From Candidatus Falkowbacteria bacterium (GTDB taxonomy: Bacteria > Patescibacteriota > Patescibacteriia > Patescibacteriales > UBA12075), in NCBI GenBank assembly GCA_003514005.1, contig DOSJ01000017.1:1-55263 (forward strand): 55,263 nt of DNA. Direction: 5' to 3'. The position numbers and the translations under genes were made by a program. This document shows positions 330 to 53,900 of the stretch, piece by piece. Within the stretch, counting starts at the first letter, position 1. Every line of letters begins with the position of its first letter. The notes under the pieces were generated by a model that was not told where the DNA came from, did no database searches, and was given only the letters and a program-made list of their open reading frames with translations.

Positions 330-347
330 CGGCTTTTGGCTTACATC

Positions 348-443
348 GCACAACAAGGGATAAAAGGAAAATTGCTCGGCTCGCAATTTTCCCAAATTTT
401 CTCCACTGCGTTCCGAAAACTTCTTTTATCCCTGACGTTAGGC
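348..443 (+). other. attC-like integron cassette recombination site
   Basis: R''-like GCACAAC (348-354), complementary arms GGATAAAAG/CTTTTATCC, two internal hairpins, and R' GTTAGGC (437-443, GTTRRRY). Lies just after a stop codon. Confidence 0.75.
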
Positions 444-488
444 AAAATCGCTTGCGACCTCTCCGCTCCGCTGCGAGGTCACCACGAT
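437..488 (+). repeat. 52-bp hairpin repeat following attC (copy 1)
   Basis: Identical to 2217-2268 except for one base. Internal GACCTC/GAGGTC stem; TTAGGCAAAATCG (438-450) pairs with CGATTTTGCCTAA (485-497). Confidence 0.9.
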
Positions 489-576
489 TTTGCCTAATGT
501 GATATGCGACTACAAGAAATGACAATTTAAATATTCTCCTTTATATAAATTTTTTTCAATTTTATTTTTTAATGCT

Positions 577-906
577 ATGGATTTTAAAGAACTATTACAA
601 TTTATCGACAAACAAGACGGTAAACTTATAAAGAGTTATGAGAGCGGTCATGACAAAGAAAAACGTGTTTTAGCACGAGCCGTCAAACTCGCAGAAGAAA
701 CAGGAGAGCTTTGCAGCGAAGCGCTCTCATACAACAAAAACCAACGTCAAGAAAAACTGGACAACCATAGCGCCAATAGCTTAGCCAACGAAGTTGCTGA
801 TGTTATAATTACGACAATGCTATTAGCAAAAACGACTGACGTGGATATCGAAACAGCATTAAAAAACAAAATTGAAAAAATTAATAAAAGGTTTGAAAAT
901 ATTTAA
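577..906 (+). CDS. MazG-like nucleotide pyrophosphohydrolase
   Basis: LAEETGEL...NEVADV acidic motifs; 109 aa. Confidence 0.85.
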   Translation: MDFKELLQFIDKQDGKLIKSYESGHDKEKRVLARAVKLAEETGELCSEALSYNKNQRQEKLDNHSANSLANEVADVIITTMLLAKTTDVDIETALKNKIEKINKRFENI

Positions 907-922
907 ATTGTCTTTTCTCTTC

Positions 923-1003
923 GTCTAACTTTTTATTTTCCTTTTCTTTATTAGTTGAATAAAGGAAGAAAAATAAAAAGTTCGCATATCACTCTAGTTA
1001 TGT
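923..1003 (+). other. attC-like site, at least its right half
   Basis: GTCTAAC (923-929), an AT-rich hairpin at 927-982, and CATA-TCACTCTA-GTTATGT with the same TA+8nt+GTT spacing as the other attC sites. The left partner is ambiguous (see findings). Confidence 0.55.
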
Positions 1004-1071
1004 GTAATTGAGAAAACGACTAAAAATTAAAAGGGGGCAAAATTTATAAAATCTTAAACAAAACTTCTATT

Positions 1072-2046
1072 ATGACAACTCCAAAATTTGATCATATTGA
1101 TTTTATTAAACAAATAGTTTCTTTTTCTCCGAGGCAACATACCGGAGAAATCAAAACCGCAGATTTTCTAGAAAATTATCTAAAAAAAAGAAAAATTGAT
1201 TTTTTCGTTCAAAAATTCAAAACAACTGTTCCAGTGGAAAAGAAAGTGATTCTTAAAGCAGATGATAAAAATATTCCTTGTAAAAGTACATGCTTTGTAA
1301 GTGGAAAAATTCCAAACAAAGAAAATCTAATTAGTTCTCTTTGTAAAGATTTTCAATATGATGAACAGATTGGATACAATATAAATTTCAATCCTTCGTG
1401 CAAATCCATTTCTTGCGCATGTTTTTACAATTACCCTGCTGTAGCTATAGCTGGAAAAGATGTGAATAAGATTCTAAATGCAAAAAAGGTTGAAGGTTTT
1501 GTAGAAATAAAACCAACAACTTATACAGCAAGAAATATTTTAGTTGGAAATAAAACTAGCCCGAAAGTAATTTGCTTTGCTCATTACGATTCTGTTTTAA
1601 CTGGAGCATGGGATAATGCCTCTGGAGTTTCAACTATAATGGCAAGTATTATCCAACATCCAGAAACTTTGGAAAATGCTCTTTATGTTTTCACTGCCAA
1701 TGAAGAAATGTCATATGATAAAGACCCTGTGTATTGGTGTAAAGGTTTTAGAGCTTTTGAAGAAAAAAATCTTGCAATTATAGAAAAAGCAAAAAGAATC
1801 ATTGTTGTTGACGGAGTTGGAATCAGTCCTTCATATTGGATGGATAAATATGAGAACTTAAAGTCAACAATATTTTTCAGACAACTCAAAAAATTCATGC
1901 CAAAGATTAGAAGGCTTGGAGCAAGCACTTCTAAATTTGCTCAATATCTTTACCACAGTGAGCTGGATACTATAAAACAGATAAAAAAGAAACATTTAAT
2001 CCAAACCTGCCATGAGTTGCACAAAGAGATATCAAAAATAGAATAA
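1072..2046 (+). CDS. M28 family zinc peptidase
   Basis: AHYDS, GAWDNASG, ANEE, DGVG and YHS metal-ligand motifs. Confidence 0.85.
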   Translation: MTTPKFDHIDFIKQIVSFSPRQHTGEIKTADFLENYLKKRKIDFFVQKFKTTVPVEKKVILKADDKNIPCKSTCFVSGKIPNKENLISSLCKDFQYDEQIGYNINFNPSCKSISCACFYNYPAVAIAGKDVNKILNAKKVEGFVEIKPTTYTARNILVGNKTSPKVICFAHYDSVLTGAWDNASGVSTIMASIIQHPETLENALYVFTANEEMSYDKDPVYWCKGFRAFEEKNLAIIEKAKRIIVVDGVGISPSYWMDKYENLKSTIFFRQLKKFMPKIRRLGASTSKFAQYLYHSELDTIKQIKKKHLIQTCHELHKEISKIE

Positions 2047-2139
2047 ATTTTGCCCCCTATAAATTAAAAAAATGGTGCTTCGCACTTGATACGCCGTTTT
2101 CTCAACTATCCTTTCGGTCGGTCGCCTTGCAGTCTCCCC

Positions 2140-2223
2140 ACATAACAGCGATTAAGAGGAAATTTCTTGCAGAAAATTTCCCCAAATTCGCTTCGCGAAC
2201 TTCTCTTAATCGGGATGTTAGGC
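2140..2223 (+). other. attC-like site (84 bp)
   Basis: ACATAAC ... GATTAAGAG/CTCTTAATC arms ... GTTAGGC. CACATAAC is complementary to GTTATGTG at the cassette start (997). Confidence 0.8.
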
Positions 2224-2268
2224 AAAATCGCTTGCGACCTCTCCGCTCCGCTACGAGGTCACCACGAT
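2217..2268 (+). repeat. 52-bp hairpin repeat following attC (copy 2)
   Basis: One mismatch versus 437-488. Confidence 0.9.
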
Positions 2269-2338
2269 ATACGCAATAATAAAAAACCTCCTTTATTTAA
2301 TAAATAATTTTTGCATTGTAAAGCCAAACAAAAAAATT

Positions 2339-2725
2339 ATGGTTTTCTTCGAAGAATTTTTTCCATTTAATAAAGACAGTAAAATGAGACCAGGGCAGGA
2401 TGATGTTCCAGAAAGAGTTGCTCAAAGAGATTTTGGCAATGAGCAACCTAATCAGAAAATTGAAAAAGACTCAACTGCAGAAGAAATTTGCACTGAAGTT
2501 CAAAGAAAGATTGATGATCCAAAATCTATAAACCCAATCTCTTTTTTCAAATACAGGGGAGTTAATCTAAAAATCGGTATTTTAAGAAATTTGGGGAAAA
2601 TGCACTATGGTATTCAATTTGAAGGAGAATCTAAAGAAGAAAACGAAACTAGCGTAGGGAATATTGAAAAAAAAATTAACGAAATTCTTAAAGAAATTGA
2701 TAAGCGAATTGATAATAAATCATAA
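2339..2725 (+). CDS. hypothetical protein (probable cassette cargo)
   Basis: 128-aa ORF after an attC, followed by TTACATCGTACAAC (2765-2778), which resembles TTACATCGCACAAC (341-354) before attC1. Confidence 0.65.
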   Translation: MVFFEEFFPFNKDSKMRPGQDDVPERVAQRDFGNEQPNQKIEKDSTAEEICTEVQRKIDDPKSINPISFFKYRGVNLKIGILRNLGKMHYGIQFEGESKEENETSVGNIEKKINEILKEIDKRIDNKS

Positions 2726-2842
2726 AATGCCAAAACCATCTTTAACAACGAATGATTTTTTTAATTACATCGTACAACCAACACTCGTGATGAATAGCCC
2801 ACAATGTTCATGGACTTGAACAATATCATTTTTTTCCAAAAT

Positions 2843-2975: not shown

Positions 2976-4217
2976 TTAAGAACAACGTTTTCGACCGGCA
3001 AACGCCAGTCCGATGAGTCCGCTTCCAAAAAGCAGAAGCGTAGCCGGTTCCGGAACAGGGTTCTGTCCGGGATTATCCGGTGCTTTGGTGTAGGTAACGC
3101 GAGTCGCAGAAGTAAAATCAATCGACCCGCCGGCAATAGCGCCGTCCAGTGTCCAATCAATGGTTGAGAGAAAATCCTTGTTTCCTAAATTCAAATAATT
3201 GAATTCGAACTGCGTAGGATCCAGCGAATTAATCCACCCGATCAGACTATCGTTGTTATCCCCGATTTTAGTTCCGGCAACATAGATCAGCCCATCGGGG
3301 TTGATGGCGGCATCGTAAATCTGCGATTCCAAATCAAACCCGTATATATCATCCACACCATAAGCCAGGTTTCCGTCCAGATGCAGGTAGTATGATCTAT
3401 CCGCTGTTGTAGTGAAAGAATTCCCCAGCACATAGATCTCGCCATTTTGCGAAATAATATCCGCAATCATGTCCTCCCCAAACAATCCGCCATAATCAAA
3501 CGTGACTGGCGCTTGATTTCGCTCGCCCTCGCCATTCAGATTGAATATCGCAAGATTGTGATTGGAAACATTGTCATTAGCACCCCGCTGTCCGCAACTG
3601 ACAGCAAGAATAATGTCCCCGCCATTTTGCGTCACAGAAATCCCCGCGATCGATGGCGCTGTCAATCCCAGTCCGCTTAGGTCAAGCGTTTTCATCTGCG
3701 TCCAGACAGGTTGATCATTCGCATCAGTTTTCATCATCTGAACACCTTTGGTGTTATACGAAAAATATATTGAAGTTCCGTCCGCATTTCGAATAGACAT
3801 TTTCGGATACATAACTTCGCCAGAAATTGGCGATTCCCAACTTGATTTTCTAACCGAAGAAGTCAGATTAAAATTAAAGCTTGTAATACCGTTTTTTGTT
3901 GTTCCCGCTCCGGAAAAAACATTAAAATCCGTAATCAAACCGCTGGAATTATAAATTGGTTCAATTGCTCTCGCGCCAGACACTGCTCTCGTTGCTTGGT
4001 ATATCACATTGCCATTTACATCACAACGCACAACTGTATTTCCGCGAAGTTCTACTGTACCAATAAAATTAGAACTGCCTTTTGGCTCAAAAAGACTCAC
4101 AATAATTCCAACTGAACTCCCAGATACAATTTCGGTTGTAATATCAGCGTATAAAAAGCTGATAAAAACAAATAAATACGTAAATACTACAAAAAATACT
4201 CTCAAATATTTTTTCAT
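2976..4217 (-). CDS. PEP-CTERM sorting domain-containing secreted protein
   Basis: Signal peptide MKKYLRVFF... with GGAGAGG RBS upstream of 4217; C-terminal VPEPATLLLFGSGLIGLAFAGRKR (PEP motif, TM helix, basic tail). Confidence 0.9.
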   Translation of the reverse strand: MKKYLRVFFVVFTYLFVFISFLYADITTEIVSGSSVGIIVSLFEPKGSSNFIGTVELRGNTVVRCDVNGNVIYQATRAVSGARAIEPIYNSSGLITDFNVFSGAGTTKNGITSFNFNLTSSVRKSSWESPISGEVMYPKMSIRNADGTSIYFSYNTKGVQMMKTDANDQPVWTQMKTLDLSGLGLTAPSIAGISVTQNGGDIILAVSCGQRGANDNVSNHNLAIFNLNGEGERNQAPVTFDYGGLFGEDMIADIISQNGEIYVLGNSFTTTADRSYYLHLDGNLAYGVDDIYGFDLESQIYDAAINPDGLIYVAGTKIGDNNDSLIGWINSLDPTQFEFNYLNLGNKDFLSTIDWTLDGAIAGGSIDFTSATRVTYTKAPDNPGQNPVPEPATLLLFGSGLIGLAFAGRKRCS

Positions 4218-4336
4218 TTTCCTCTCCTTTGATATTGTGTTTGTCAATGTTCAAATTTATATAAAAATAGCACTATTTAACTAATTTGTCAATACCATAA
4301 ATTAATTGTTTTATTTACATGGCATCAACACATTAT

Positions 4337-4795
4337 TTAAAATTTTAATTCAATTACTCGATTTACGTCACTAAATTTACCGTATGAAATTAAAGTAGTG
4401 ATTGGATCCGCATGACTATAGTTTATACTATAATAAGTTTCGTTTAATAACTTTTGTCTTCCCGTAGGACACAATACGTTACAAGAAATAATTACACCAT
4501 CAGTCTCAGAATCAAAACAAATAAATTCATTATTATTACAAGAAGGAATTACAGAATCATCTACGAAAACTATTGGATCATTTTTATTCTTCCTAAACTC
4601 CCACAAAATCCTCTCCGCCCCCGCCTCCGCGGCAAAAAAAGCCTTGGTTGATTGGACCTGGTCGGTGCCAAGGTGAAGGCCATTCACAACGATAGCAGAA
4701 AGGGATAAGGAGATAATCAAAACACTGGTCAGGACGAAGAATGTCATGACGAGCATAGCGGAGCCGGTTTGGGATTTTAAAATATTTTTTGTCAT
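4337..4795 (-). CDS. PilX-like minor pilin
   Basis: G|SAML hydrophobic helix and STKAFFAAEAGAE PilX N-terminal motif; part of the pilin cluster. Confidence 0.8.
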   Translation of the reverse strand: MTKNILKSQTGSAMLVMTFFVLTSVLIISLSLSAIVVNGLHLGTDQVQSTKAFFAAEAGAERILWEFRKNKNDPIVFVDDSVIPSCNNNEFICFDSETDGVIISCNVLCPTGRQKLLNETYYSINYSHADPITTLISYGKFSDVNRVIELKF

Positions 4796-4806
4796 TAAAT
4801 ATTTAC

Positions 4807-5118
4807 TTAAACAAATTTTATCTCTGCCCTAACATTGTATTCATTGCAAATTCTTTGAATGATTGCGGTGCCGGGAAAAACTTGCCCGTTTTCTATGCGA
4901 GAAATTACCGCCTGAGTGGTGTTGATTTTCTCAGCCAGTTCTTTTTGCGATATTTTTTTCTTTTTTCTAAACCTGATTATTTCATCCGCTAATTGCAACT
5001 TAACCATTTCCGAATGAAACGCTTTTTTAAATTCTGATTTCAGCATATTTTTTTTTAGTTCATCATCAAAAGAAGATGCTAATTTTTTTATGCTTTTTTT
5101 TGTTTTTTTACTATTCAT
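4807..5118 (-). CDS. XRE-family HTH antitoxin (HigA-like)
   Basis: SQKELAEKINTTQAVISRIENG HTH; 4-nt overlap with the upstream toxin gene. Confidence 0.85.
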   Translation of the reverse strand: MNSKKTKKSIKKLASSFDDELKKNMLKSEFKKAFHSEMVKLQLADEIIRFRKKKKISQKELAEKINTTQAVISRIENGQVFPGTAIIQRICNEYNVRAEIKFV

Positions 5119-5480
5119 ATATGCAATGTAAAATTATTTTTAAAATCCAAATATTTTTCCTGTGCGATTACAAGCTCTTTTTTTGGCGTTTCTTCTCCTT
5201 CTTTTTTTGAAAAAGCATGCAACAGAACCAAATAATCATCTTGCCAAATACAATATATTATCCGATGAAGATTTTTTGAAATCTTAACCCGGATTTCCGA
5301 AAAATCATATCCCCTCATATTCTTGCTAATAAAATTTCCAGCCTTTCCATCCTTTTCTGATACATAAAAAATATTTGCCATTACCTTGGCTTTATCTGAA
5401 TCTTTTTTGATAGCATCGAGATATGTTTTTACCGGAATATTATTCGTTCCTGATTCAACATAATATATTATTTTCAACAT
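5115..5480 (-). CDS. RelE/ParE-superfamily toxin (HigB/Gp49-like)
   Basis: SEIRVK..HRIIY...VLLHAFSKK...TPKKE motif; toxin-first gene order. Confidence 0.85.
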   Translation of the reverse strand: MLKIIYYVESGTNNIPVKTYLDAIKKDSDKAKVMANIFYVSEKDGKAGNFISKNMRGYDFSEIRVKISKNLHRIIYCIWQDDYLVLLHAFSKKEGEETPKKELVIAQEKYLDFKNNFTLHI

Positions 5481-5484
5481 TTTT

Positions 5485-5513
5485 AGTATATACCTTTAAA
5501 GATATATTGTCAA
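5485..5513 (-). promoter_or_regulatory. sigma70 promoter of the TA operon (probably leaderless mRNA)
   Basis: TTGACA-17nt-TATACT on the minus strand, 4 nt before the ATG. Confidence 0.7.
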
Positions 5514-5528
5514 TTTTTATTATTTTTA

Positions 5529-5564
5529 GCGTAGAGACGCCCCGCTGGGACGTCTTCTCTACGC
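5529..5564. repeat. GTAG-type REP-like palindrome
   Basis: GCGTAGAGACGCCCCGCTGGGACGTCTTCTCTACGC, an imperfect hairpin at a module junction. Confidence 0.6.
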
Positions 5565-5565
5565 A

Positions 5566-5652
5566 CCATTTACAACGATCGCGGAAAGGGATAAGGATAT
5601 AATCAAAATACTGGTCAGGACAAAAAATGTCATGAGAAGCATGGCGGAGCCG
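5566..5652 (-). pseudogene. orphan copy of the pilX-like 5' end
   Basis: Translates as GSAMLLMTFFVLTSILIISLSLSAIVVNG, versus GSAMLVMTFFVLTSVLIISLSLSAIVVNG in 4337..4795. Confidence 0.9.
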
Positions 5653-14262: not shown

Positions 14263-14499
14263 AAGGAGTGAGATATTTGCATCATCAGACAACTAATTTA
14301 TGCGACTACAAGAAATTTTAGTCTTTTCTTCTTATAATAATTTAATGAAAATGATGTAATTAGTATTTTAAATAATAAATATCCTGATAAATTACAATAA
14401 AAAATTTTAAAAAATCAAATTTTCTTAGATGCAAGATTAGATTATAATTATATAAACAACGAGATAAAAAATTGACATCTAAACTATCTTCTTCCTTCT

Positions 14500-14916
14500 A
14501 TGAACACGAAGCATAAAATTATTCCTAAACTAATTGCTCCCTGTGGAATGAATTGTGGAATTTGTTTGGGATATCTTAGAGAAAAAAATAAATGTCTTGG
14601 GTGTAGAGGAGTTGATAAAAATAAACCCGATGGTTGTAGAAAATGTATAATAAAAAGTTGCCAAATTCTCAAAAATAATAAAATGCTTTTTTGTTCGGAC
14701 AAGTGTGAAAAATTTCCTTGCGCAAGATTAAAAAATCTTGATAAAAGATACAGAACAAAGTATAAGATGAGTATGTTAGAGAATCTTGAGAATATTAAAA
14801 AATTTGAAATTAAAAAATTTGTTAAATTCGAACAAAAAAGATGGAAGTGTCCAAAATGCGGAGAATTGCTTTGTGTTCATAGGGATTCTTGTTTGAATTG
14901 TGGCGAAAAAAGATAG
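14500..14916 (+). CDS. DUF3795-like Cys-rich protein
   Basis: APCGMNCGIC, CLGC, C..C.KFPC and terminal CPKC...C..C; followed by an attC. Confidence 0.8.
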   Translation: MNTKHKIIPKLIAPCGMNCGICLGYLREKNKCLGCRGVDKNKPDGCRKCIIKSCQILKNNKMLFCSDKCEKFPCARLKNLDKRYRTKYKMSMLENLENIKKFEIKKFVKFEQKRWKCPKCGELLCVHRDSCLNCGEKR

Positions 14917-14982: not shown

Positions 14983-15066
14983 ACATAACAGCGATTATCT
15001 GGTTCGGACTTGCAGTCCTCACCCAAATTTCACTTCGTGAAACTTCAGATAATCGCGATGTTAAAT
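14983..15066 (+). other. attC-like site (84 bp)
   Basis: ACATAAC-AGCGATTATCTG ... CAGATAATCG-CGAT-GTTAAAT; same length and branched layout as 2140-2223. Confidence 0.8.
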
Positions 15067-15776: not shown

Positions 15777-17142
15777 CTAGTGTCCGGTTAAAATATCCCC
15801 AAAAATAGAAAAAGCCCCTAATTTACGTTATAATATTTGTATCGAGCAAACATTCAACTTAAATTAAAAGGCTATTTCTATGAATTATACTAACACAATT
15901 TTCAATCAATTGCTAAATTTCTTGCCTCGCTGTAAATTCAATCAATTTGTCGGACAGCACGAAAACGATAAATACACGAAACGTTTGACTACGTGGAATC
16001 AATTAGTGGCATTGATATATGCCCAGGCTACTGGCAAAGATAGCCTGCGTGAGATTGAGACCGGTTTCAACTTGAATAAAAATATCTGGTATCATTTGGG
16101 CGTAGGTTCAGTCGCCAGATCAAGCCTAGCGGATGCCAATAGTCGGCGCAGTTATCAGATATTTGAAAAATTATTCTATTCGCTATTAAGACAATTTCAA
16201 GAAATCATTCCCGAGGAAAACAAATTTGATTTTAAAAACCCGCTTTATTCCTTTGATTCTACCACGATTGAACTATGCTTGAATATTTTTGACTGGGCCA
16301 AGTTCCGTACCGCCAAAGGCGCATTAAAAATTCATACCCTTTTAAATAATCGCACTACCGTTCCGGAATTGTTAAATATTACTAATGGCAAAGTCGCCGA
16401 TGTCAGAGCGCTGAAAGAAATGGATTTGAATTTACCGCCACAAAGCGTGATTGTTTTTGATAGGGCATATATCGATTATGATTTATGGGATGAAATTAAA
16501 GAGAAAAAATGGTATTTTGTATCGCGGACAAAAATCAGCCAGAATTTGTTTGTTATCGGACAGCATGATATTGCAAAAACATTGGCTAAAAACATCCTAG
16601 CGGATGAACAAGTAATCTACGGCGATTACACGGCAATGCAGAATCACGGAGATATGGTATTGAGGAGGATTAGATATTACCACGAGAAAGATGAGAGAGA
16701 ATATGAATATTTGACCAATAATTTTGATCTGTCCGCTACTCAGATCGCCGAAATCTACAAACAACGCTGGCAGATTGAATTATTTTTTAAATGGATCAAA
16801 CAAAATTTGAAAATCAAAACATTTCTCGGCACTTCCGAGAACGCTGTAATGACGCAAATATGGGTGGCTATGATTTATTATTTGCTATTGGCGTATATAA
16901 AGTTTCAAACAAAGTTTAAAAAATCACTCTTGGAATTAACCAGAATGATTAGGGAGGTATTGTTAACCAGAAGAGATTTAATAGATTTATTATCCTTGAA
17001 CCTTAATACCGTCCTTAAGCTTAAAAAAATAGATGATAATCCACAGATGAGTTTTTGGTAGAAAGAAGAGTGCTAAGAAATTGTTAATTGAATGAAATTT
17101 GATGCTGGAAATTTAGGTTTTGGAATTTTAACCGGACACTAG
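15777..17142 (+). mobile_element. IS4-family insertion sequence
   Basis: Perfect 18-bp terminal inverted repeats CTAGTGTCCGGTTAAAAT (15777-15794 and 17125-17142); the terminal CTAG may be the target duplication. Confidence 0.92.
15880..17061 (+). CDS. IS4-family DDE transposase (DUF4372-type N-terminus)
   Basis: DSTT, FDRAY and Y..RWQIELFFKWIKQ (YREK-type) motifs. Confidence 0.95.
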   Translation: MNYTNTIFNQLLNFLPRCKFNQFVGQHENDKYTKRLTTWNQLVALIYAQATGKDSLREIETGFNLNKNIWYHLGVGSVARSSLADANSRRSYQIFEKLFYSLLRQFQEIIPEENKFDFKNPLYSFDSTTIELCLNIFDWAKFRTAKGALKIHTLLNNRTTVPELLNITNGKVADVRALKEMDLNLPPQSVIVFDRAYIDYDLWDEIKEKKWYFVSRTKISQNLFVIGQHDIAKTLAKNILADEQVIYGDYTAMQNHGDMVLRRIRYYHEKDEREYEYLTNNFDLSATQIAEIYKQRWQIELFFKWIKQNLKIKTFLGTSENAVMTQIWVAMIYYLLLAYIKFQTKFKKSLLELTRMIREVLLTRRDLIDLLSLNLNTVLKLKKIDDNPQMSFW

Positions 17143-43990: not shown

Positions 43991-46900
43991 TTATTTAGCG
44001 ATTATAAGCAGTTCCTTCGCGCGCGACAAGCCGCTTACAAATTCTGCGCGCAAAACAACTTTATAAAAACCTTTATTAAAGCTATGGGTCGGATTTTGAA
44101 CCGTGCTTGTCGTGCCGTCCGCAAAATTCCATTCAAATTTTGCCGGCACCTCGCCAAAACTGGCTGTAAAATTAACGGTCATTGGCGCCGCACCGGTTTG
44201 AGCTGAAGCTGAAGCCGTGACTGTCGCCGGTAAAATCGTTTTGTTAGCGCTGGTTTTAAATGTTTGATCAGCGCTTTGTGCTATGTTTCCGACCGGGTCT
44301 TTGGCGTACACCTTGTAATGATAAAGAGTATCGGGATTAAGATTGTTCAAAGTAATTCTCCTTTCAATATAATATATTTCATCATAATCCAAGGTATCGC
44401 CATAAGCCGTAGTTAAACCATAAACCACCTTGTAAGTCGCGACATCCGGCATGACAGGATTCTGGCTGAGCCTGATTATGATATCGCTTGTAGTCGCGCT
44501 GTTGCTTAGATTGGTTTCGGAAAAAACTTGGGCTATCACAGGCAAAGTCGTATCTTTGATTTTTGTTTTTATTTTGAATGGATTATACAAAGGGTCGCCA
44601 AAAGTGATGTCACGCCAGCGCAATACGGGATAACTGAGTGCGGAGCTTTCCGCTAAATTATAGCCACTCAACATATAATTTAAAAATATTTCCGGTCGCG
44701 GATGACCTGTTAAATACGGCTCTCCGGTAACTCCGGTGCCGGCAGTTAACCCGGCAACAAAAGCTTTTTTAAGAAAATTTGTACCAGAATCTGAATTCAA
44801 ATCACAAGCAAATGCTCCGACTTTCCAATTAAAAACATTATTATATTTTCCAAAATTATACCAACCTTCATACCAGATAGCATTCGGCGCTTTTTCCGCG
44901 CTTGAACCGTCAGTAAAAACAGCGCCACTTTCGCCGATTTCCTGCTCCCCGACTTGCCATTTATAATTCCAAGAAAGCCTGTCAGCAATGCGCTTGCCAT
45001 AAGCCATCCAGCGATCACCTGTGCCATAAGAACTTGAATCGGAAAAAGCCGGATAATTTGTATCAAGATATTCATCAGTGAATTTTGAATATCTAGTATC
45101 TACGTATCCGGTTCCACTATAGTAGCCGCTTTCATTAACAATGTATTTTTCACCATACAACGCGCGATTTAATAGTTCAAAATTATCCATGCGGACAACC
45201 GGATAAATATTTTTTCCGCCATATTTATATGAATGGTTAAAGTGGCGGTCGCTTTGTGTTTTTATAGCCACGGGATTAAAATACGGGTTATTGCCATTCC
45301 ACCCTGTTGAATAATCTGTCGAAGTGGCTATACTATTAACCGTCATCAAAGCATGATCCAAAGATCGCGTTCCATAGCTATCAAGCGGCGTGATTGACGA
45401 TGGCAATCCTACCAAAAGAAAATAATAAATCTTATCCTCGCCTACTTCAACCAATTTTGCCTGAATTGTTTTTACTATTTCATTATAAAAAGACGAATAT
45501 TTCACATCCTTATAATAATATGAATAACAACCCCCTCCTTCGGTTGAAGGATATACCGGCAACATATTCACGGCTGGTACATCGCGTTTTAACTTGTAGT
45601 ATTCCGCTATTTCAACATAATCCTTGATGCCATTCTTATTATTATCAGTCGCGCATTTGTCATTATAAATCACTAATAATTTAGCCGAGTCATCATTATT
45701 AACACTAATAGTGCAATTATTGTCATTGCCATTAGTACATCCCGAGGGACAACAGCCATCGTTATTCTGACAAGTGCTAACCACCGTATTTGAACATGTT
45801 GCTGAAATTGTGCTAGGATTTTTACAGACATCCGTAGTGCAAATATTTTTATCATCACATCCAGTATAATCAAAACATTTTACTTTGGACACATCAATCG
45901 GATTAATTTTTATCTGCCATGCCATCTGCGCGCTCTTGCCACCATTATCGGCTACTAACAGAACAATTGAATGTAATCCCTCACTCAGAGTATTTGTATT
46001 AAAAAAATAATAGCTTGTATTATCATATTCTCTTTCGGATGAATTATTTGAACTCGCAGAATTTATCACTCCGTCCTTGTCTGACGACAAAATATACGAA
46101 TAAGGCAATATTCCTCCTTGGACACTGGCGGAGAAATAGACAGTATCGCCTTTGTAATATTCCCTGATTCCGCCCGCGACATCCTCTTGTCCGCCAATAA
46201 TTAGATTATTAGAAACAATAACAAAAATGCTTGAACTATACTCAGCGCTGGCGCTGTCTTTGGTTACAAGCGTAATCTTGTGCATTCCAAGCGCCAATGA
46301 ATTAATACTTAAATAAGAAGCACTTCCAATTATACCCGCTTTATCAGATTTCCATTCATAAGAATATGGAGCTTTGCCGTACTGCGCGTATGCCGAAAAG
46401 AATATATTGGATCCAAGAGCAAATTCCTGATTATTTTCCGGATAATCGATTGGGGAATATAAAGTATTTATCAATTCACATTTACCCGTGTTCGTGTTAC
46501 AGATTTCTCCACCGGAATAATTACATGGTTTATTGATTTTTTCCAGACAAATGTCGCCGTCGCCTGCTTCGCCACAAGACCAAGACGTGTTCTGTCCCAA
46601 ACAGCCAATTTCCGCAGATGAACATTCATTGGCGCAAACAACACAGGCCTGGCTCAATGCCGGTAAATTTGCCGAGGTGCCGCATTTATTTTGATCTATG
46701 CAAGTTCTAGTTTGAATATTATTTAAACAAGCTCCGAAATCCGTGCAAACCCAATTTTCGGTACATGCGCAAGCCAAATCCGCTCCACTGCAGTCTTCGT
46801 CAATACCGTTGCCACAAATCTCTGTTGCCCCAAGATTAATAGCGCCTTTTGCGTCATCACAATCATCACCTGAACGCCCTTCTATATACGGCGTCTTTGA

Positions 46901-47920
46901 ACACATAGTATTGACGCGATAGACTTTTAGATTTTTATCGCAATAGCCATCCTTGTCATCATCACAGCCTTCGTCGGTCTGGCCGTTGCAATTGTTGTCA
47001 ATCGTATCGCAAGTTTCTTGTCCGCCGGGATAGGCGAATTTTTCATTGTCATTACAATCTATGGCCTTGCCGTCGTCGCCGGATTGTCCGAGAGCGCAGT
47101 TGTCGTAACCGTCGCCGTCATTATCTTGACAAGTACTGGTGCCGGAACAGCTTTGATTCAAGAGCGGCCTTTGAGAAAGAGTGCCACAATTGTTTTGGTC
47201 TATGCAAGATCTTATCTGGGTACTATTTTGGCAAGCGTTCCATTCGCCGCAAGTCCAATTTTCGGTGCAAACTGTTGTGCAAGCTTGACTTTCCGCCGGT
47301 TTGCTTGTCGCGGTTCCGCATTTATTCTGATCCGTGCAGGTTCTGGTCTGCAGATTATTCTGGCAAGCGCTCCAATTGCCACAAGTCCAATTCTCAGTGC
47401 AGGCTGTTGGTATATATTTAAATTTTTGCAATTGCCAAAAATTCTGGGCGCAAAGGGCGTCACGACAGCCGCATTTCCAGGCTGTTCCGGTCCAAGAGCA
47501 GATGTATACGAGAAGATAGTTGTCTTTCAACATATCCTCGGCACTGAAGACAACGTCTACTTTGGCTTTAGCAACCAGCCACAGGCTGTATGAAGCGCCA
47601 GTGGGGGTAAATTCAATCTGTTCCCATTTGCTGTTTTTCCAAACATAGCCGTATTTGTAGATATACTGTGTGGCTTGTCCGTTTCCGATTTCCGCGTTGA
47701 CTTGTGTTTGGGCGCAATCGGTTTTTACAAGCAGTTCTTTTTGGGTGGAAACGGTGTTGTAGGCGGCGCCAAATCCGGTTGGAACTGCTTGAGTGGAGGT
47801 GTATTGAGAGCAAGGAAAGGCGTTTGCGGAAAATGAAAAGAAGATGAGAAAGAAAAAAAACAAAAAAGGCAAGGCAAAAAAAGCCATGGCTTTTTTAGGA
47901 GGATTTGGTTGAGGATGCAT
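43991..47920 (-). CDS. large secreted Cys-rich protein with TIGR03790-like, FN3 and PKD domains
   Basis: Three CTENW.C repeats, DCND..PG..E.CD.IDNNC repeats, a domain ending GEPYL...FGDPLYNPF, and a C-terminal PKD (WNFADG...NPTH). Exact start uncertain. Confidence 0.75.
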   Translation of the reverse strand: MHPQPNPPKKAMAFFALPFLFFFFLIFFSFSANAFPCSQYTSTQAVPTGFGAAYNTVSTQKELLVKTDCAQTQVNAEIGNGQATQYIYKYGYVWKNSKWEQIEFTPTGASYSLWLVAKAKVDVVFSAEDMLKDNYLLVYICSWTGTAWKCGCRDALCAQNFWQLQKFKYIPTACTENWTCGNWSACQNNLQTRTCTDQNKCGTATSKPAESQACTTVCTENWTCGEWNACQNSTQIRSCIDQNNCGTLSQRPLLNQSCSGTSTCQDNDGDGYDNCALGQSGDDGKAIDCNDNEKFAYPGGQETCDTIDNNCNGQTDEGCDDDKDGYCDKNLKVYRVNTMCSKTPYIEGRSGDDCDDAKGAINLGATEICGNGIDEDCSGADLACACTENWVCTDFGACLNNIQTRTCIDQNKCGTSANLPALSQACVVCANECSSAEIGCLGQNTSWSCGEAGDGDICLEKINKPCNYSGGEICNTNTGKCELINTLYSPIDYPENNQEFALGSNIFFSAYAQYGKAPYSYEWKSDKAGIIGSASYLSINSLALGMHKITLVTKDSASAEYSSSIFVIVSNNLIIGGQEDVAGGIREYYKGDTVYFSASVQGGILPYSYILSSDKDGVINSASSNNSSEREYDNTSYYFFNTNTLSEGLHSIVLLVADNGGKSAQMAWQIKINPIDVSKVKCFDYTGCDDKNICTTDVCKNPSTISATCSNTVVSTCQNNDGCCPSGCTNGNDNNCTISVNNDDSAKLLVIYNDKCATDNNKNGIKDYVEIAEYYKLKRDVPAVNMLPVYPSTEGGGCYSYYYKDVKYSSFYNEIVKTIQAKLVEVGEDKIYYFLLVGLPSSITPLDSYGTRSLDHALMTVNSIATSTDYSTGWNGNNPYFNPVAIKTQSDRHFNHSYKYGGKNIYPVVRMDNFELLNRALYGEKYIVNESGYYSGTGYVDTRYSKFTDEYLDTNYPAFSDSSSYGTGDRWMAYGKRIADRLSWNYKWQVGEQEIGESGAVFTDGSSAEKAPNAIWYEGWYNFGKYNNVFNWKVGAFACDLNSDSGTNFLKKAFVAGLTAGTGVTGEPYLTGHPRPEIFLNYMLSGYNLAESSALSYPVLRWRDITFGDPLYNPFKIKTKIKDTTLPVIAQVFSETNLSNSATTSDIIIRLSQNPVMPDVATYKVVYGLTTAYGDTLDYDEIYYIERRITLNNLNPDTLYHYKVYAKDPVGNIAQSADQTFKTSANKTILPATVTASASAQTGAAPMTVNFTASFGEVPAKFEWNFADGTTSTVQNPTHSFNKGFYKVVLRAEFVSGLSRAKELLIIAK

Positions 47921-47943
47921 AGGGTTATTTAAAATAATAAAAT

Positions 47944-50900
47944 TTAAGGAGGTGGTGGGGGCGGGGGTGGGGGCGGAATACTCCCTCCACAATCAGTATT
48001 ACAATTACTGCTATTTTCCCCTACTCCAGCATTACAACCTTCTATTCCGCAACATTGCAAAACCGTACAATCACTAGTACAATTTGCTGTGCATTCCCCG
48101 GCTTCACATGTGTCATTTCCACAAACCGCTCCAGCACTGCAATCAATAGAGCAGTTAGCCGCATTTTCACCAGAATCGCAAGTGCCATTTCCACATGACA
48201 CGGGAGGAGGTGGTGGTGGCGATACATTACAATCCCCGGCGCAAGATGCAACTGTTTCACCGATACCGGCATTACATCCCTCAATACCGCAACAATCGGT
48301 CAAATCGCAATCCACATTGCAATTTGTCGTGCATTCGCCGACATCACAAGTGCCGTTTCCGCAATTACTGCTTGCCGGCACTGTCATTACTTCAAGCGAC
48401 CGCGGGCTTTCATTACCGTTTTTGTCAATTGCGGAAACCGCGAAATAATATGTTTGCCCGTTTGTTAATCCGCTGATGATAACTTCGGTGTCTTTACCAA
48501 TATCATTCGCTCCGCCATATATGCCGGAATTGACTCCATAATAAAGCTTGTAGCTTGTCGCCCCGGATACGGCGCTCCAACTCAATTTTACCTGCTTTTC
48601 CAAAGGAATAGCCAAAAGATTAATTGGCGCTCCCGGAGCGGATTCATCTGTAACCAAAATATCTTTTTCTCCAAAATATTCGCTTTCAGTTCCTGTATTT
48701 AAAAATGAAGTTACATTGAAATAATATTTTTTATCATTCGTCAAACCGTTAACGGCGCAAGTAAATGTCGTACCGGAAAGAGTACAAGAAATATTATCAC
48801 TATCGTCCGTAGCGTCATTGTATATTTCGCCATAATCATCATATTTTCCCGCGCCCGTCCCCCAATATATTTTATAGCCATCTACGCCGGCAACTCTTTC
48901 CCAGCTTACGCTAACGGTTTGTCCATCCGCCATGTTTAACAAAGAAATGTCAGCGCTTGCCGTCGGAATGTCTTCTCGGAAAAAATATACTTCTTTTAAA
49001 TAATTGCTTTGGCAAACACCGCTCGAATCCGGTCCGCAAGCAACGCCGAATACCGGGCAGACTTCACCAGTCGTACTACAGCTAAAAAACACCGAACGCC
49101 CTCGAATTATCCGATTCGGATCAGTTGACTTGTACCCGCTTTTAATCGCCGGCAAATCATCATAAGTTCCGGCAGAGCCGGCATCACGGCAATAATATAA
49201 TTTGTAGTTGTAATTATCACAGCCCGCGCCGGCAATCGAACAATTGTTATCCTGATCTTGCCACGGCTGCCAGGTGCCATCCGCCGCAATCGGCGGCCAA
49301 GGGTTGTTGCAGACAAAAAGAAAAACATCGGAAGATCCGGAAGGGGCTGGCACTATTCCTGATATTGTATTGCCGGGGGCATATTCCATGACTGCTGAAA
49401 CAAGAGTTTGTCCTTCCGTCTTTGTTGTGCCTGTGCGAACTAGCTGTTTGTCACCTGTTATTGGTAAAGGCAAGGCTGGTACAAAATCGGCAATTAGCGC
49501 GTTGCTTGTCGTCCAAACTAAATTCCAATCATAAATTCCCGGAATCGGCGAAAGAATCTGCTTATTGCCTCGCGCATAAGCTTTAAAAACTTTATCACTG
49601 TCTTTTATGGAATCATAAGTTTTTGTATTACCTGCGTCGTCGTCATTTTGATTATTGGTAGTAGTTTGAAATAAATAAGATTTCGGTTCAATTTCTATGC
49701 TATTAACAATACAAACGCCATTATTGGCTGATTGCTCCGACAAAGTCGTGAATGAAAAAAGATGCGAATTGGCATAAGTTATGCCATTCAGCGTTTCGCT
49801 TATCCCGCCGTTCATACCGATCCCATAAATACTTTTCACGCCTAGAGCGCGATTATCATTAAGAACCTGATCGCCTTTGATAATCGCGTAATAACGGCGA
49901 TTACCGTCTAATAGGCGATTGGGTCTAAAACTCAAAACACCTTTGCCCGCGGCATCATTGATTCCGCTCGCTTGCCCGGAAACCGCGCAAAAATTATGAC
50001 CGGCCTCGATTGCATAATAAGCCAAAGCCTCGTCTTGTGCCGAAAAAGGGTTAATAATTCTTTTTGCCAAGAACAGAATTTTTATATATATCTTTTCAAA
50101 AAAATTCTTTTTTGCTTGCGTCCATCCGGCGGCGGCCAAATATTGCGTCCCGGCGGGACAGGCATCAAAACCATAATCACCGACCAGGATCGCATTACCA
50201 TTAAAGCTCCCGGTATCCATCTGCTGGTCGAAATAAACGGTTATCTCGGCATTCCGGCAAATCTGGTCGCTATTATCCGCCGGAATCGAAGACTCTATAT
50301 TTGGCCTGGCACGACAGCAAGAATCCAGTCCACAGCCGACCCCGCTCGGCACAAGCCCGCTCGCAACGCAATCAATATCAGCCGTACAGCCACAACACAA
50401 TCCCCTGTTTTCCGTCGTACACGGCGCCTTATCGGAAACGCATTTCAAATCCAAGCCGGCCTCAACACATTCATCCGCGGCCGCATTCGGATCACAACAG
50501 CAAGTTCCGCAGCCATCGGAAAAATTCGAAGTAGCCGATTCATTCAGGCACTGGAAAGGATTGGCGCATAGACCATTATTACAAGCGCCGAATTCATCGA
50601 TTTTTTCCGATTGACAGCTAGTGCCTAAACCGTCAGTGGAGTTGCCTTTGCAAGAATTTGCACAATCGTTAAGTGCGTCAAAATCACCGCTTACTTTCGG
50701 AATAATATCGCAGGTATCTTTTTGCGGTAAGGTGCAATCATAATAAGCGCAATAATTCAAACCGCCACTATTGAAAGCATTCCCGCCACCAATCCCCCGG
50801 CAATTATTCGCAGATTTTCCGTCAACACAACAAGAAGTGGCGTGATCAGAACAACCGCTTGTATCTGCGGCTAATTGCGAGCAATCTTTGCAAGCCCCGA

Positions 50901-53900
50901 CTTTTGTTCCGTTGACTTCGTATTCGGTATCACAGAATTTTCCGGCCGCGCCCGTGCAATTGCAAGCCGCATCCGAGGCCGCGATATCAACCACTCCGCC
51001 GCTTTCCACCCGACAGCCGGTACAATATCCGGATCGATCCGTATCGGTAATTCGATCACTTCCGCAATCGCCGGCGCAAGTAAGCCCCAAGCAACAATCC
51101 TGGCTGTCATAGCTCACTCCTGCCTGTGGCAAACGGCAGCAACATTCGCAAACCGCGCTGTCCTTCTCGGTGCAGACGCCGGCATCGCAAACGGTCCCGC
51201 TCGGACAAATATCCAATGAAGAAATACATTCGCCGTTGCCATCGCTATTTACATCTTGGCAATTCAAGCCCAAAGGGCAAGAAGAACAAACAGTGCTCTC
51301 ATCAATACATTTATTATTGCCGATATTCATCCAATTTGCCGGACAGCTGGCTGAAGTATTTATATGCCAACGATTCACGCCGTTATAAGCCGCGCAATAT
51401 GCGTTGGTATTCTTATTTAAAGAATCCAGTACCGGTTTTGAGCAAACAATGGAATTTTCAATGCACTTATCCGCTAGGCTAGAATATGAACAAGTAATAG
51501 CCGAGCAACCGGGCATCGTGCAAATGTTATTTGTGCAAGCAATGCCGCTTGTAATCGCGTTTCCGCCGGAATATGGCGAACATAGCCCCGGTGAATTCGG
51601 ACAAAGCAGTGGTTCACAGGCGTTAGTCCTTTGCGCTCGTCCTTGGCAGCTGTCGGTAGAATCAGTATTAACGTCTTTTTCACATACGCAAGTGGTGGTG
51701 TTGCATTCCCAATCCGTTCCAAGTGTAGAGCAGATATCGTTATCAGCGTCGCAAACAGCGTTTGTCGTGTCGCCATCACAGGCCAATAGCCCACCCGAAG
51801 TAAACTCCCATTCATAAACCGATGCGGTAAACGCCCCATAACAATCGGATTTGTCAGTGTTCCCATCCAAATTTTTATCCGTGGCACAGCGACCGGCTTC
51901 ACTGCTGTCTATCGGACAGCAAACGCCGGAAACGGCGCCATTGTCGCAGTCCTGATTTGCCTTGCACTCACCGATATAAAAATTCATTCCATTGCCTTCC
52001 AATGTGGTATTTTTCAATACTTTGACCGGACCGGTCAAGGCGGACGGATGGACTTTTGCTTTTATCTTGTTAGTTTTCCCGCTAACATCCCAAGAAATAA
52101 TCGGACCGACCGCGGCCAAAGCGCCTTGCTGGTCTTGATTATTATAAAATCTTACCTTTGAAGCCCCGGAAGCGTCATAAGTACCGAAATATTCTCCCCA
52201 CAGGCTGATTTCACTGTTGTTTACTCCGCGTATCGGATCTATCCGGCACAAGCTGGGCGCCAAAGGCAAGGTGCTATTATAATGAAAAGTAGGGTCCGCT
52301 ACCGGCCCGGTCGAAAAAGTATCGGCCGTGTCGATCGGTTCAGTTACTCCGCTCAAACTAATAACAATATAATAATCGCTATCATCATTTGGTAAACCTT
52401 CCGGAACCTTTACCAATATCTGCTTATCGCTCCAAAGATTATTTTTACATTCCTCCGGAAAAACATAATCAGCTTCCGTGCCATATTTGGTCGGATCTCC
52501 GCCCGCATTATCGCTTAGATCAAAATCAAAATAAACTTTGCCGGTTTTTTGCGACGAACCAAAACCGCCGCCCATGATCGTAACATATTGTCCGGCTGAG
52601 CCGCTGGTCGGTGAGAACGAAGTTATATAAGGTCCGGTTTGCGGCTCTGTATTTTTAGTAAAAAACAAATAATTACTGTTAACGCCTCCAGTTTTGACAA
52701 ATGCGGTTTTTTTACCAATGCTAATATTCGGAACTTGCGCTGTTCCGAGAGTCGCAACCGGAAAAACAGAATTCAAAGCCGGAACATTGGCGGCATAAGA
52801 TCCAAAAAAAGCCGAAGCGCCGTTCAAACGGATGCCTTCGAAAGATACAGCGGTATTAATAACGCCGTTGTCCGGACTAAGCAAGCACAGACCGGGACGA
52901 GCTATGGTATTGTTTACAAAACCGATGATAGCGCCCCGCGAATCATTGTTTGTATCAAAAAATCCGCTGGCGGCTGTAACCCTGATTTGCGGACTGGCAG
53001 CCAATCCATTCGGCAGAACAACAATTATCTGATTGTTTTTCCAGCTATCAGCACATGACGGATTAGCAGTATTTGCCAAAGGCGCCTCTACTCCGTCAAA
53101 TTCTACCTTGCTCACACCCAAAACATAAGTACCGAAATAACGTCCGCTAATAGTCACTAATGACCTGGCTGAAGCATTGGCGGTATCAATATCGCAAGTA
53201 TCGCCCGCGACCAAGGCCGCGCAAACCGCATCATCGCTTCCACAATAGGCATTCGGACTAGCTTTGCAAAAACCACCGATAGGGGTTATATAGTCAATTA
53301 AAGGAGCATCCTCGCAAATACAACAATCACTAATCCCGGCTCTGTAACCCGCGGCTGTACATTCAGCTTCGGTCGTTCCGCCGCAAGCGCATAATCCGCC
53401 CGCGCATTTCGTATCGTCGCAATTCGCATTACCGGCGCCGCAAGACTCGGAAAGGCTTGTCCCGCACGAAGCGCCTTCGCAAGCGGCGCAAGGGCCTCCG
53501 CAATCGATTCCAACTTCTCCCAAGGGTTCGTCTTTGATATTGTTACAGCAATGACCGGGGCGCAAAAGATACGTCTTGTCATCACTTGCGCTGCGGCTGT
53601 CGATGTCATTGACAGTTACCTTAATATTTATCGGGGTACCCGGCATAATCGCGGAAGCATCCCACCACACAGGCGCGTTTGCGCTGCGCGAATTAAAAGT
53701 TTGTCCCCCGCCGGCAAAAACCGGATTTGATGCATCAATGATTGAAAGATTGTCAATAAAAAATTCCAGTTGGCTGATGCCGGAATTATCCGAGGCAAAA
53801 GCATACAGCTCATTATTATTTACCGCGCATATTTGATTAAAATCCAGTTTTACTGTAGGATTGTCACAATCTATCGTGTCGCCGACCGTAAATTCAATTT

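Follow-up and report, generated by a model that had tools for sequence, protein, structure and literature searches.

What are the long inverted repeats that bracket single genes in this locus and differ from gene to gene: a scar left by the making of gene cassettes, or a working part of them? The question arises from contig DOSJ01000017.1 of a Candidatus Falkowbacteria bacterium, a stretch of 55,263 nt that was analysed whole and is called the window here. Its source genome (G000, with contigs written C1, C4, C9 etc.) has 1.32 Mb and is 99% complete, and the best homologues of the window's MazG come from Patescibacteria MAGs. A first-pass annotation had described cargo genes enclosed by gene-specific, multi-segment stems that overlap stop codons, and all six of the inverted pairs that it named are exact reverse complements. 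We consider it probable that these matching ends are structural arms of a branched ssDNA recombination site for a Xer-like integrase, each gene being carried in the loop of one arm, and that the arms are written by a template and kept by selection. The features are collected in Table 1.

Table 1. Cassette-related features of the window, with positions counted from its first nucleotide.
Feature	Position	Strand	Details
Compact attC-like site	346..439	+	R″ core with AAC end 352–354, 10-bp L stem, unpaired G, hairpin 1, CCCAAAT, hairpin 2, ACTT, L′, 4-nt spacer, GTT 437–439
Gene-less R arm of MazG unit, own R′/R″ hairpin	437..498	+	
L″ arm of giant attC	499..508	+	Perfect complement of 983–992
Hairpin 1 5′ arm, the MazG leader	509..576	+	Scaffold first, then match to MazG's own 3′ end, reaching ATG
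MazG-family pyrophosphohydrolase gene, 109 aa, loop of hairpin 1	577..906	+	Pfam PF03819
Hairpin 1 3′ arm: last ~16 codons, stop codon, trailer	855..925	+	
Giant attC right half: hairpin 2, AGTT (family ACTT), L′ 983–992, 4-nt spacer, GTT	926..999	+	
M28 cassette, classical slot between R′ and R″	997..2146	+	Core 997–1004/2139–2146
Peptidase M28-domain gene, 324 aa	1072..2046	+	Pfam PF04389
Compact attC-like site after M28	2144..2219	+	
Decayed unit	2217..2778	+	437–488 hairpin copy fused to worn cassette start; R″-like end 2770–2778
Orphan left half of giant attC: R″, L″, hairpin 1 start	14284..14320	+	17-mer in common with 504–520
DUF3795-like gene	14500..14916	+	Weak Pfam match under cut-off; cassette start lost
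Compact attC-like site after DUF3795	14987..15062	+	

The stem around MazG is longer than had been noted, with segments at 508–538/895–925 (31 nt, 84%) and 551–576/855–880 (26 nt, 96%), the 3′ arm of the second lying within coding sequence; nearly all of 509–576 is complementary to 855–925, about 16 sense codons included. The M28 cassette has an outer stem (1008–1018/2095–2105), an inner stem that includes the TAA (1032–1047/2043–2058) and a looped-out 3′ insert at about 2108–2137. Both stems far exceed chance: none of 1000 shuffles and none of 69 ends from foreign cassettes attains the best ungapped scores of 22 (MazG) and 16 (M28). Two further proposed examples stay at chance level when taken alone and do not stand as independent cases, namely the 8-bp match of the DUF3795-like gene (score 8, reached by 128 of 1000 shuffles and 9 of 69 foreign ends), and a weaker match around 2339..2725 (score 8, reached by 374 of 1000 and 24 of 69). 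The description of the segments as gene-specific holds for the private stems, but not for 499–508/983–992, which is the L stem of an attC site, nor for 997–1004/2139–2146, the ordinary R′/R″ core, and some of the outer segments recur in other cassettes.

The window contains three compact attC-like sites; no integrase is encoded in its 55,263 nt, and no Rfam family matches there. The R arm at 437..498, whose R″ is AAT and which has no 2-nt spacer, looks damaged when compared with sister units. Within the decayed unit the ORF at 2339–2725 has no Pfam match, and no attC was found downstream of that unit. A near-identical direct repeat of the gene-less hairpin (437–488 and 2217–2268) flanks MazG and M28 and could be a substrate for slippage deletion. 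Contigs of four sequencing runs placed on 990–2800 contained no circle joints, and the repeat copy at 437 accounts for the contigs that end loosely at 2217. About 0.8 kb past the DUF3795 attC lies an IS4-type DDE transposase (15880–17061), which may be related to the decay of that cluster. Elsewhere, 4686–5652 holds two related segments of ~70 nt and a GTAG-led hairpin (about 5531–5565), which we take to resemble REP/RAYT remnants, and the segments surround a Gp49/HTH toxin–antitoxin-like pair adjoining a Fic gene. A PEP-CTERM-motif protein is encoded at 2976–4247. Two very large surface proteins, of 1333 and 2279 aa, are encoded at 43991–54783, and one of them starts with a T4SS-pilin-like domain.

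Sites were searched in the source genome, in eight further metagenome loci (a ninth was left out as a duplicate of that genome) and in 80 regions, with a detector built on attC anatomy (AAC/GTT, L stem, unpaired G and unpaired spacer). The 128 sites gave 72 cassettes, 70 of them distinct, while sites without a matching-core start and a nearby ORF were left out. Cassettes were chosen by core and AAT-like triplet, independently of any stem, and a private stem was defined as one starting at position 12, beyond the core, with a score of at least 10. Such a stem is present in 55 of the 70 related cassettes and is thus a general feature of them. Swapping the partners gives one in 60 of 4830 pairs, and none of the 11 class 1 cassettes has one (13 tried, ends missing for two; core runs of 8–13 nt). 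Related genomes and common end families are not independent in these counts. A first stem scoring at least 10 is absent from the remaining 15. The own partner is at least equal best in 60 of 70 cassettes and strictly best in 45, some outer segments being common to families. Beyond the core, a median of 30 further nt is paired. The stem meets the 3′ end directly (offset 11) in 34 of 62 cases and otherwise after a looped-out insert, as in M28, and its mismatch geometry is fixed, with position 11 opposite C in 57 of 62 stems. Looped-out 3′ inserts in the L096, L111, L113 and G001 arrays have in common a CGCTGCGCTCTC-like motif with a variable hairpin on either side, a counterpart of the CCCAAAT junction in attC. 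Further cassette arrays occur in the source genome at C4:103800–110900, C7, C9:1–1940 and C20.

The overlap of stems with stop codons is a common property as well, with a block scoring at least 10 in 20 of 58 single-gene cassettes versus 79 of 3306 swapped pairs. In comparison, ordinary genes rarely have such stems: gene-anchored matches of at least 12 nt surround 10 of 987 ORFs of the source genome versus 28 of 70 cassettes, and among the best matches of that control are two cassettes as well as several tandem repeats of 7-mers. Tandem 7-mer words in inverted arrays flank non-cassette genes at L176:1470–1870 and at G000 C8:20703–21059, C1:7891–9354, C16:210515–212371 and C22:2842–8640; these loci are the main non-cassette matches, and one of them holds a MazG homologue with a perfect 27-nt pair. 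Among 13 usable loci homologous to window genes, the longest inverted match is at most 9 nt in 12, and the remaining one has a 27-nt repeat made of 7-mers, without an attC motif; a fourteenth locus was left out because its ORF had been chosen wrongly. No stem like that of the window's MazG was seen among 20 inspected of 71 MazG loci, and no cassette-borne close homologue of its MazG or M28 in 251 genomes.

MazG itself occupies a second kind of slot. Long attC sites of this family consist, in order, of L″, a G-CTAC-like start, hairpin 1, CCCAAAT, hairpin 2, ACTT and L′, and the flanks of MazG reproduce this layout with identical spacing, the gene forming the loop of hairpin 1. Because it is located inside an attC, MazG is not the conventional cassette that it had been taken for, and its reading as an ordinary cassette without its attC was dropped once the long-attC layout and other gene-sized sites had been found. 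Hairpin 2 is closed by an AAAT/ACTT mismatch in 119 of 124 sites, a regularity partly built into the detector. Among 210 distinct attC right halves, 103 have a left arm within 200 nt (compact sites), 35 have one 251–745 nt away with no other right half in between, and for 72 the search rule accepted no left arm. The 35 gene-sized sites come from about 15 genomes, and in 25 of them a sense ORF covers at least half of the loop. A hairpin-1 block scoring at least 12 is present in 34 of 35 versus 64 of 1190 swapped (trans) pairs; foreign L arms were accepted in 8 of 942 tries, and the gene-sized sites have 21 different L arms, with the L stem formed across the gene in 33 of 35 predicted folds. Six of the 35 units stand directly after an attI-like site, 40–109 nt away. 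In one pair of homologous loop units (81% amino-acid identity), the R arm, the L arms and both neighbours differ, while the hairpin-1 stem shows a two-sided change, both arms having been altered together.

Pfam matches were obtained for 7 of 23 loop genes (MazG, three NUDIX, one GNAT, one EamA and one DUF6804). Nucleotide house-cleaning enzymes thus make up four of the seven (MazG at window 577–906 and the three NUDIX, the loop genes of L099, L097 and L109), in small numbers. The MazG unit of the window carries lesions, namely a damaged AAC/spacer, an altered CCCAAAT and an altered ACTT, and is therefore probably inactive. Positions 979–999 were considered as an attI site, but their spacing and L″ partner fit an attC right half better; they may be an attI/attC hybrid.

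A candidate enzyme is encoded on contig C9 of the same genome, where a 292-aa recombinase lies with a divergent array and an attI-like site. It passes NF040815 but not TIGR02249 (183.8 bits versus a cut-off of 265). About 42 residues of the VchIntIA insertion region are missing, VchIntIA 175–241 standing opposite query residues 192–216 only; we take that region to be the IntI insertion. Its best structural relative is a XerA-type enzyme, 4A8E. The attI-like site beside it ends, by its sequence, at G|TT, and its 11-6-11 layout presumably resembles dif. A conserved attI-like motif has 28 matches (duplicates included), many of them directly upstream of integrase genes, and occurs once, at the array head. 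Contig C4 has an attI-like motif of its own, while the integrase sits on C9. Among 121 related genomes, 37 have the integrase and 56 the attC motif, the reversed pattern giving one match in each of nine genomes. A link between integrase and cassette sites is suggested by their adjacency on C9 and in relatives; the wider spread of the attC motif counts against it, and an attempt to connect the window's contig with C9 gave no link.

Folding predictions agree with the proposal that the stems fold ssDNA so that cassette ends meet. The bottom strand of window 430–1010 folds with z = −11.3, and 0 of 100 shuffles fold as well. With DNA parameters, the bottom strand folds better than the top strand in 65 of 69 cases, and the site of the excised circle is predicted to be more stable than the site in the array in 66 of 69 (medians of −61 versus −43 kcal/mol). 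Whole array segments were folded for the 18 of 28 adjacent cassettes that span at most 1100 nt and have usable flanks. The outer stem formed in all 18. In 14 of these folds R″ found its own R′ as partner and in 3 the next R′; 15 folds had both L stems, and only 4 had paired flanks, which correspond to the fourth arm of the proposed junction and were truncated in sequence. Such equilibrium predictions leave kinetics and SSB out of account, and the cost that they put on loops of 0.4–1 kb may be too low.

Among the alternatives, the one that survives best regards the repeats as a footprint only, left by capture at a hairpin tip and extension of the free arm on the gene's 3′ end by fold-back synthesis, with no later function of the stem; we judge it unlikely. 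Leaders match the gene end in 12 of 58 cassettes versus 125 of 3306 swaps, whereas trailers match the gene start in 0 of 58 versus 76 of 3192 swaps. The C-terminus of MazG is similar to that of non-cassette homologues that have no repeat, its motif included. Loop-slot stems stop a median of 8 nt ahead of the ATG and include the stop codon in 18 of 25, and the scaffold at the start of window 509..576, in the unit at 499, is reused at G000:C4:105815 with a different gene and is found at other loci too. The leader/trailer asymmetry, the non-cassette C-terminus and the stem end near the ATG appear copy-like in these comparisons, as does the absence of a wobble bias among the stem mismatches (counts below). 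A pure footprint, however, does not account for the pairing of two ancestral protein motifs with each other. In 13 of 58 cassettes, a block scoring at least 10 joins the first 60 coding nt to the last 60, with 1.8 cassettes expected under synonymous shuffling; the corresponding counts are 14 of 996 for genome ORFs, 5 of 179 for ORFs of low GC and 2 of 53 for windows deeper in the gene. In a PhnP-like cassette, a single case, the paired coding ends are motifs present in 109 of 120 and 107 of 120 homologues. Such coding–coding blocks, ancestral motifs included, look selection-like and suggest either selection or continued conversion. Gene bodies also diverge while stems stay almost invariant, as do the paired ends of a 76%-identical cassette pair, and similar first stems show 45 two-sided versus 5 one-sided differences (20 non-independent pairs, conditioned on having a stem). 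Worn stems in decayed units and the fixed mismatch geometry count against a mere footprint as well. Template switching is known to perfect inverted repeats (PMC5941160), and inverted-repeat arms are possible in conserved coding DNA (PMC6649704), as far as the available portions of these papers go.

A role in RNA, also raised by the first-pass annotation, would have the transcript ends pair, hiding the start codon or letting RNase III cut single-gene mRNAs out of an array transcript. Stems do track start and stop codons, and loop genes are mostly in sense orientation (the 25 of 35 above). However, the 43 stem mismatches, against 1833 pairs, comprise 8 G–T (sense strand), 7 A–C and 28 others, which is no wobble bias, in small numbers, and with RNA parameters the sense strand is the stronger binder in only 28 of 70 cassettes. 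The distance between the crossover and the start of the stem is also fixed (offset 11, as given above), and stems occur in gene-less units. We regard this explanation as quite improbable.

Slightly less credit still is due to the possibility that the fold does not serve catalysis but chiefly shields single-stranded cassettes, or keeps them compact, during transfer (transformation uptake, with SSB and nucleases kept off). It would agree with the much greater predicted stability of circles, with type IV pilin-type genes in the window and with the recruitment of cassettes from transformed ssDNA by integrons (PMC12614218, in its accessible part), but it leaves the fixed mismatch and the L stem kept across the gene unexplained, and pairing fades deeper in the gene (the 2 of 53 windows above). 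That T-rich leaders pair by chance with gene ends rich in A stands as an explanation for DUF3795 and 2339–2725 but is refuted, and practically negligible, for MazG, M28 and the family, where every control (swapped partners, shuffles, low GC, direct repeats) gives far lower values and the MazG unit has the z value given above, even though 5′ arms are 52% T and synonymous shuffles attain the MazG leader score in 9.9% of trials.

The reading that we prefer, arms of a branched ssDNA recombination site, has several parts. In the sequence, the stretch from one G|TT point to the next forms a unit with two hairpins, an L stem and an R arm. Its cargo lies in one of two loops, that of the R arm (the classical slot, as for M28) or that of hairpin 1 within attC (as for MazG), and in both slots the private stem extends to about the stop and start codons. 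In predicted folds, the bottom strand is favoured, R″ pairs with its own R′ even within an array, and the site is more stable in the excised circle. An integrase of the C9 type may act on the cassette sites, and the long duplex may substitute for the absent IntI insertion. The stem would aid excision and insertion by keeping the flanking sites next to each other, perhaps within a four-way junction resolved by one strand exchange, and the circle would carry a ready-folded site for attI. The arms would be written and held near-perfect via template copying across the fold, at capture and later, and selection would retain them. A bolder version, which we offer tentatively and do not expect to be the likelier outcome, is a pre-IntI cassette system in Patescibacteria. 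There the hairpin tip of either slot would capture a gene, fold-back synthesis would copy the gene's 3′ end into the leader, and the stem would pre-assemble a Holliday-like junction for a plain Xer-type enzyme to resolve. If true, these loci would be a readable record of cassette making, a process that is largely unknown for integrons according to the part of PMC5371416 available to us.

How these cassettes relate to known systems can be stated feature by feature. With classical integrons (IntI, attI and attC; class 1, and Vibrio cholerae IntIA/VCR, PDB 2A3V) they share a divergent tyrosine recombinase with an attI-like site, co-oriented gene arrays, AAC/GTT triplets, the L stem, the unpaired G and central spacer, and the better bottom-strand fold, which is predicted here. 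However, R pairing in classical cassettes spans 9–11 nt in the accessible text of Bouvier 2009 (PMC2727003) and 8–13 nt in our 11 class 1 cassettes, so the baseline of about 7 bp assumed earlier was too low, and here the median of 30 further nt is added. Likewise, the terminal structures of 20–100 nt given in the available text of Cury 2016 (PMC4889954) contrast with gene-holding loops of 251–745 nt in 35 sites, and the IntI insertion, thought necessary for attC recombination in the literature as far as available, is absent from the integrase here. The window arrays resemble CALINs (Cury 2016, PMC4889954) in being attC clusters with no integrase in the window, and archaeal IntIs keep the additional domain, in the available text of Ghaly 2022 (10.1101/2022.02.06.479319), unlike the present enzyme. 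For CALINs and archaeal integrons, those two texts, supplements aside, contain no mention that we found of private stems or of genes inside attC. Nor did we find a description in the available parts of PMC8876359, PMC5371416, PMC2727003, PMC8946536, PMC9892861, PMC4889954, the Ghaly preprint and PMC12614218, whose supplements could bear on long attC sites. The XerA/XerC/XerD enzymes with dif-like sites are close by structure (the XerA-type 4A8E) and by the NF040815 match, but Xer/dif modules keep cargo between two fixed double-stranded sites, whereas the partner here is a variable branched hairpin with private cassette ends. MITEs and TIR transposons carry terminal inverted repeats common to the family, together with target duplications; in the present cassettes the own partner is strictly best in the 45 of 70 given above, and families have some outer segments in common. 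Quasi-palindrome correction (PMC5941160) and the coding palindromes of Nematomorpha mitochondria (PMC6649704) similarly involve, in the portions available, near-perfect inverted repeats with arms in conserved coding sequence, but the arms described here are 0.3–3 kb apart, are tied to a recombination site and have a mobile gene between them. Because three features that define integrons differ here (the IntI insertion, short end pairing and a gene outside attC), the cassette system is called integron-like; it is a variant of the integron and integron-like in its working. Its cassettes have a directional, gene-templated end signature, a second gene slot inside attC and an enzyme without the insertion, and gene-filled sites of this kind are likely to be missed by attC models based on terminal structures of 20–100 nt.
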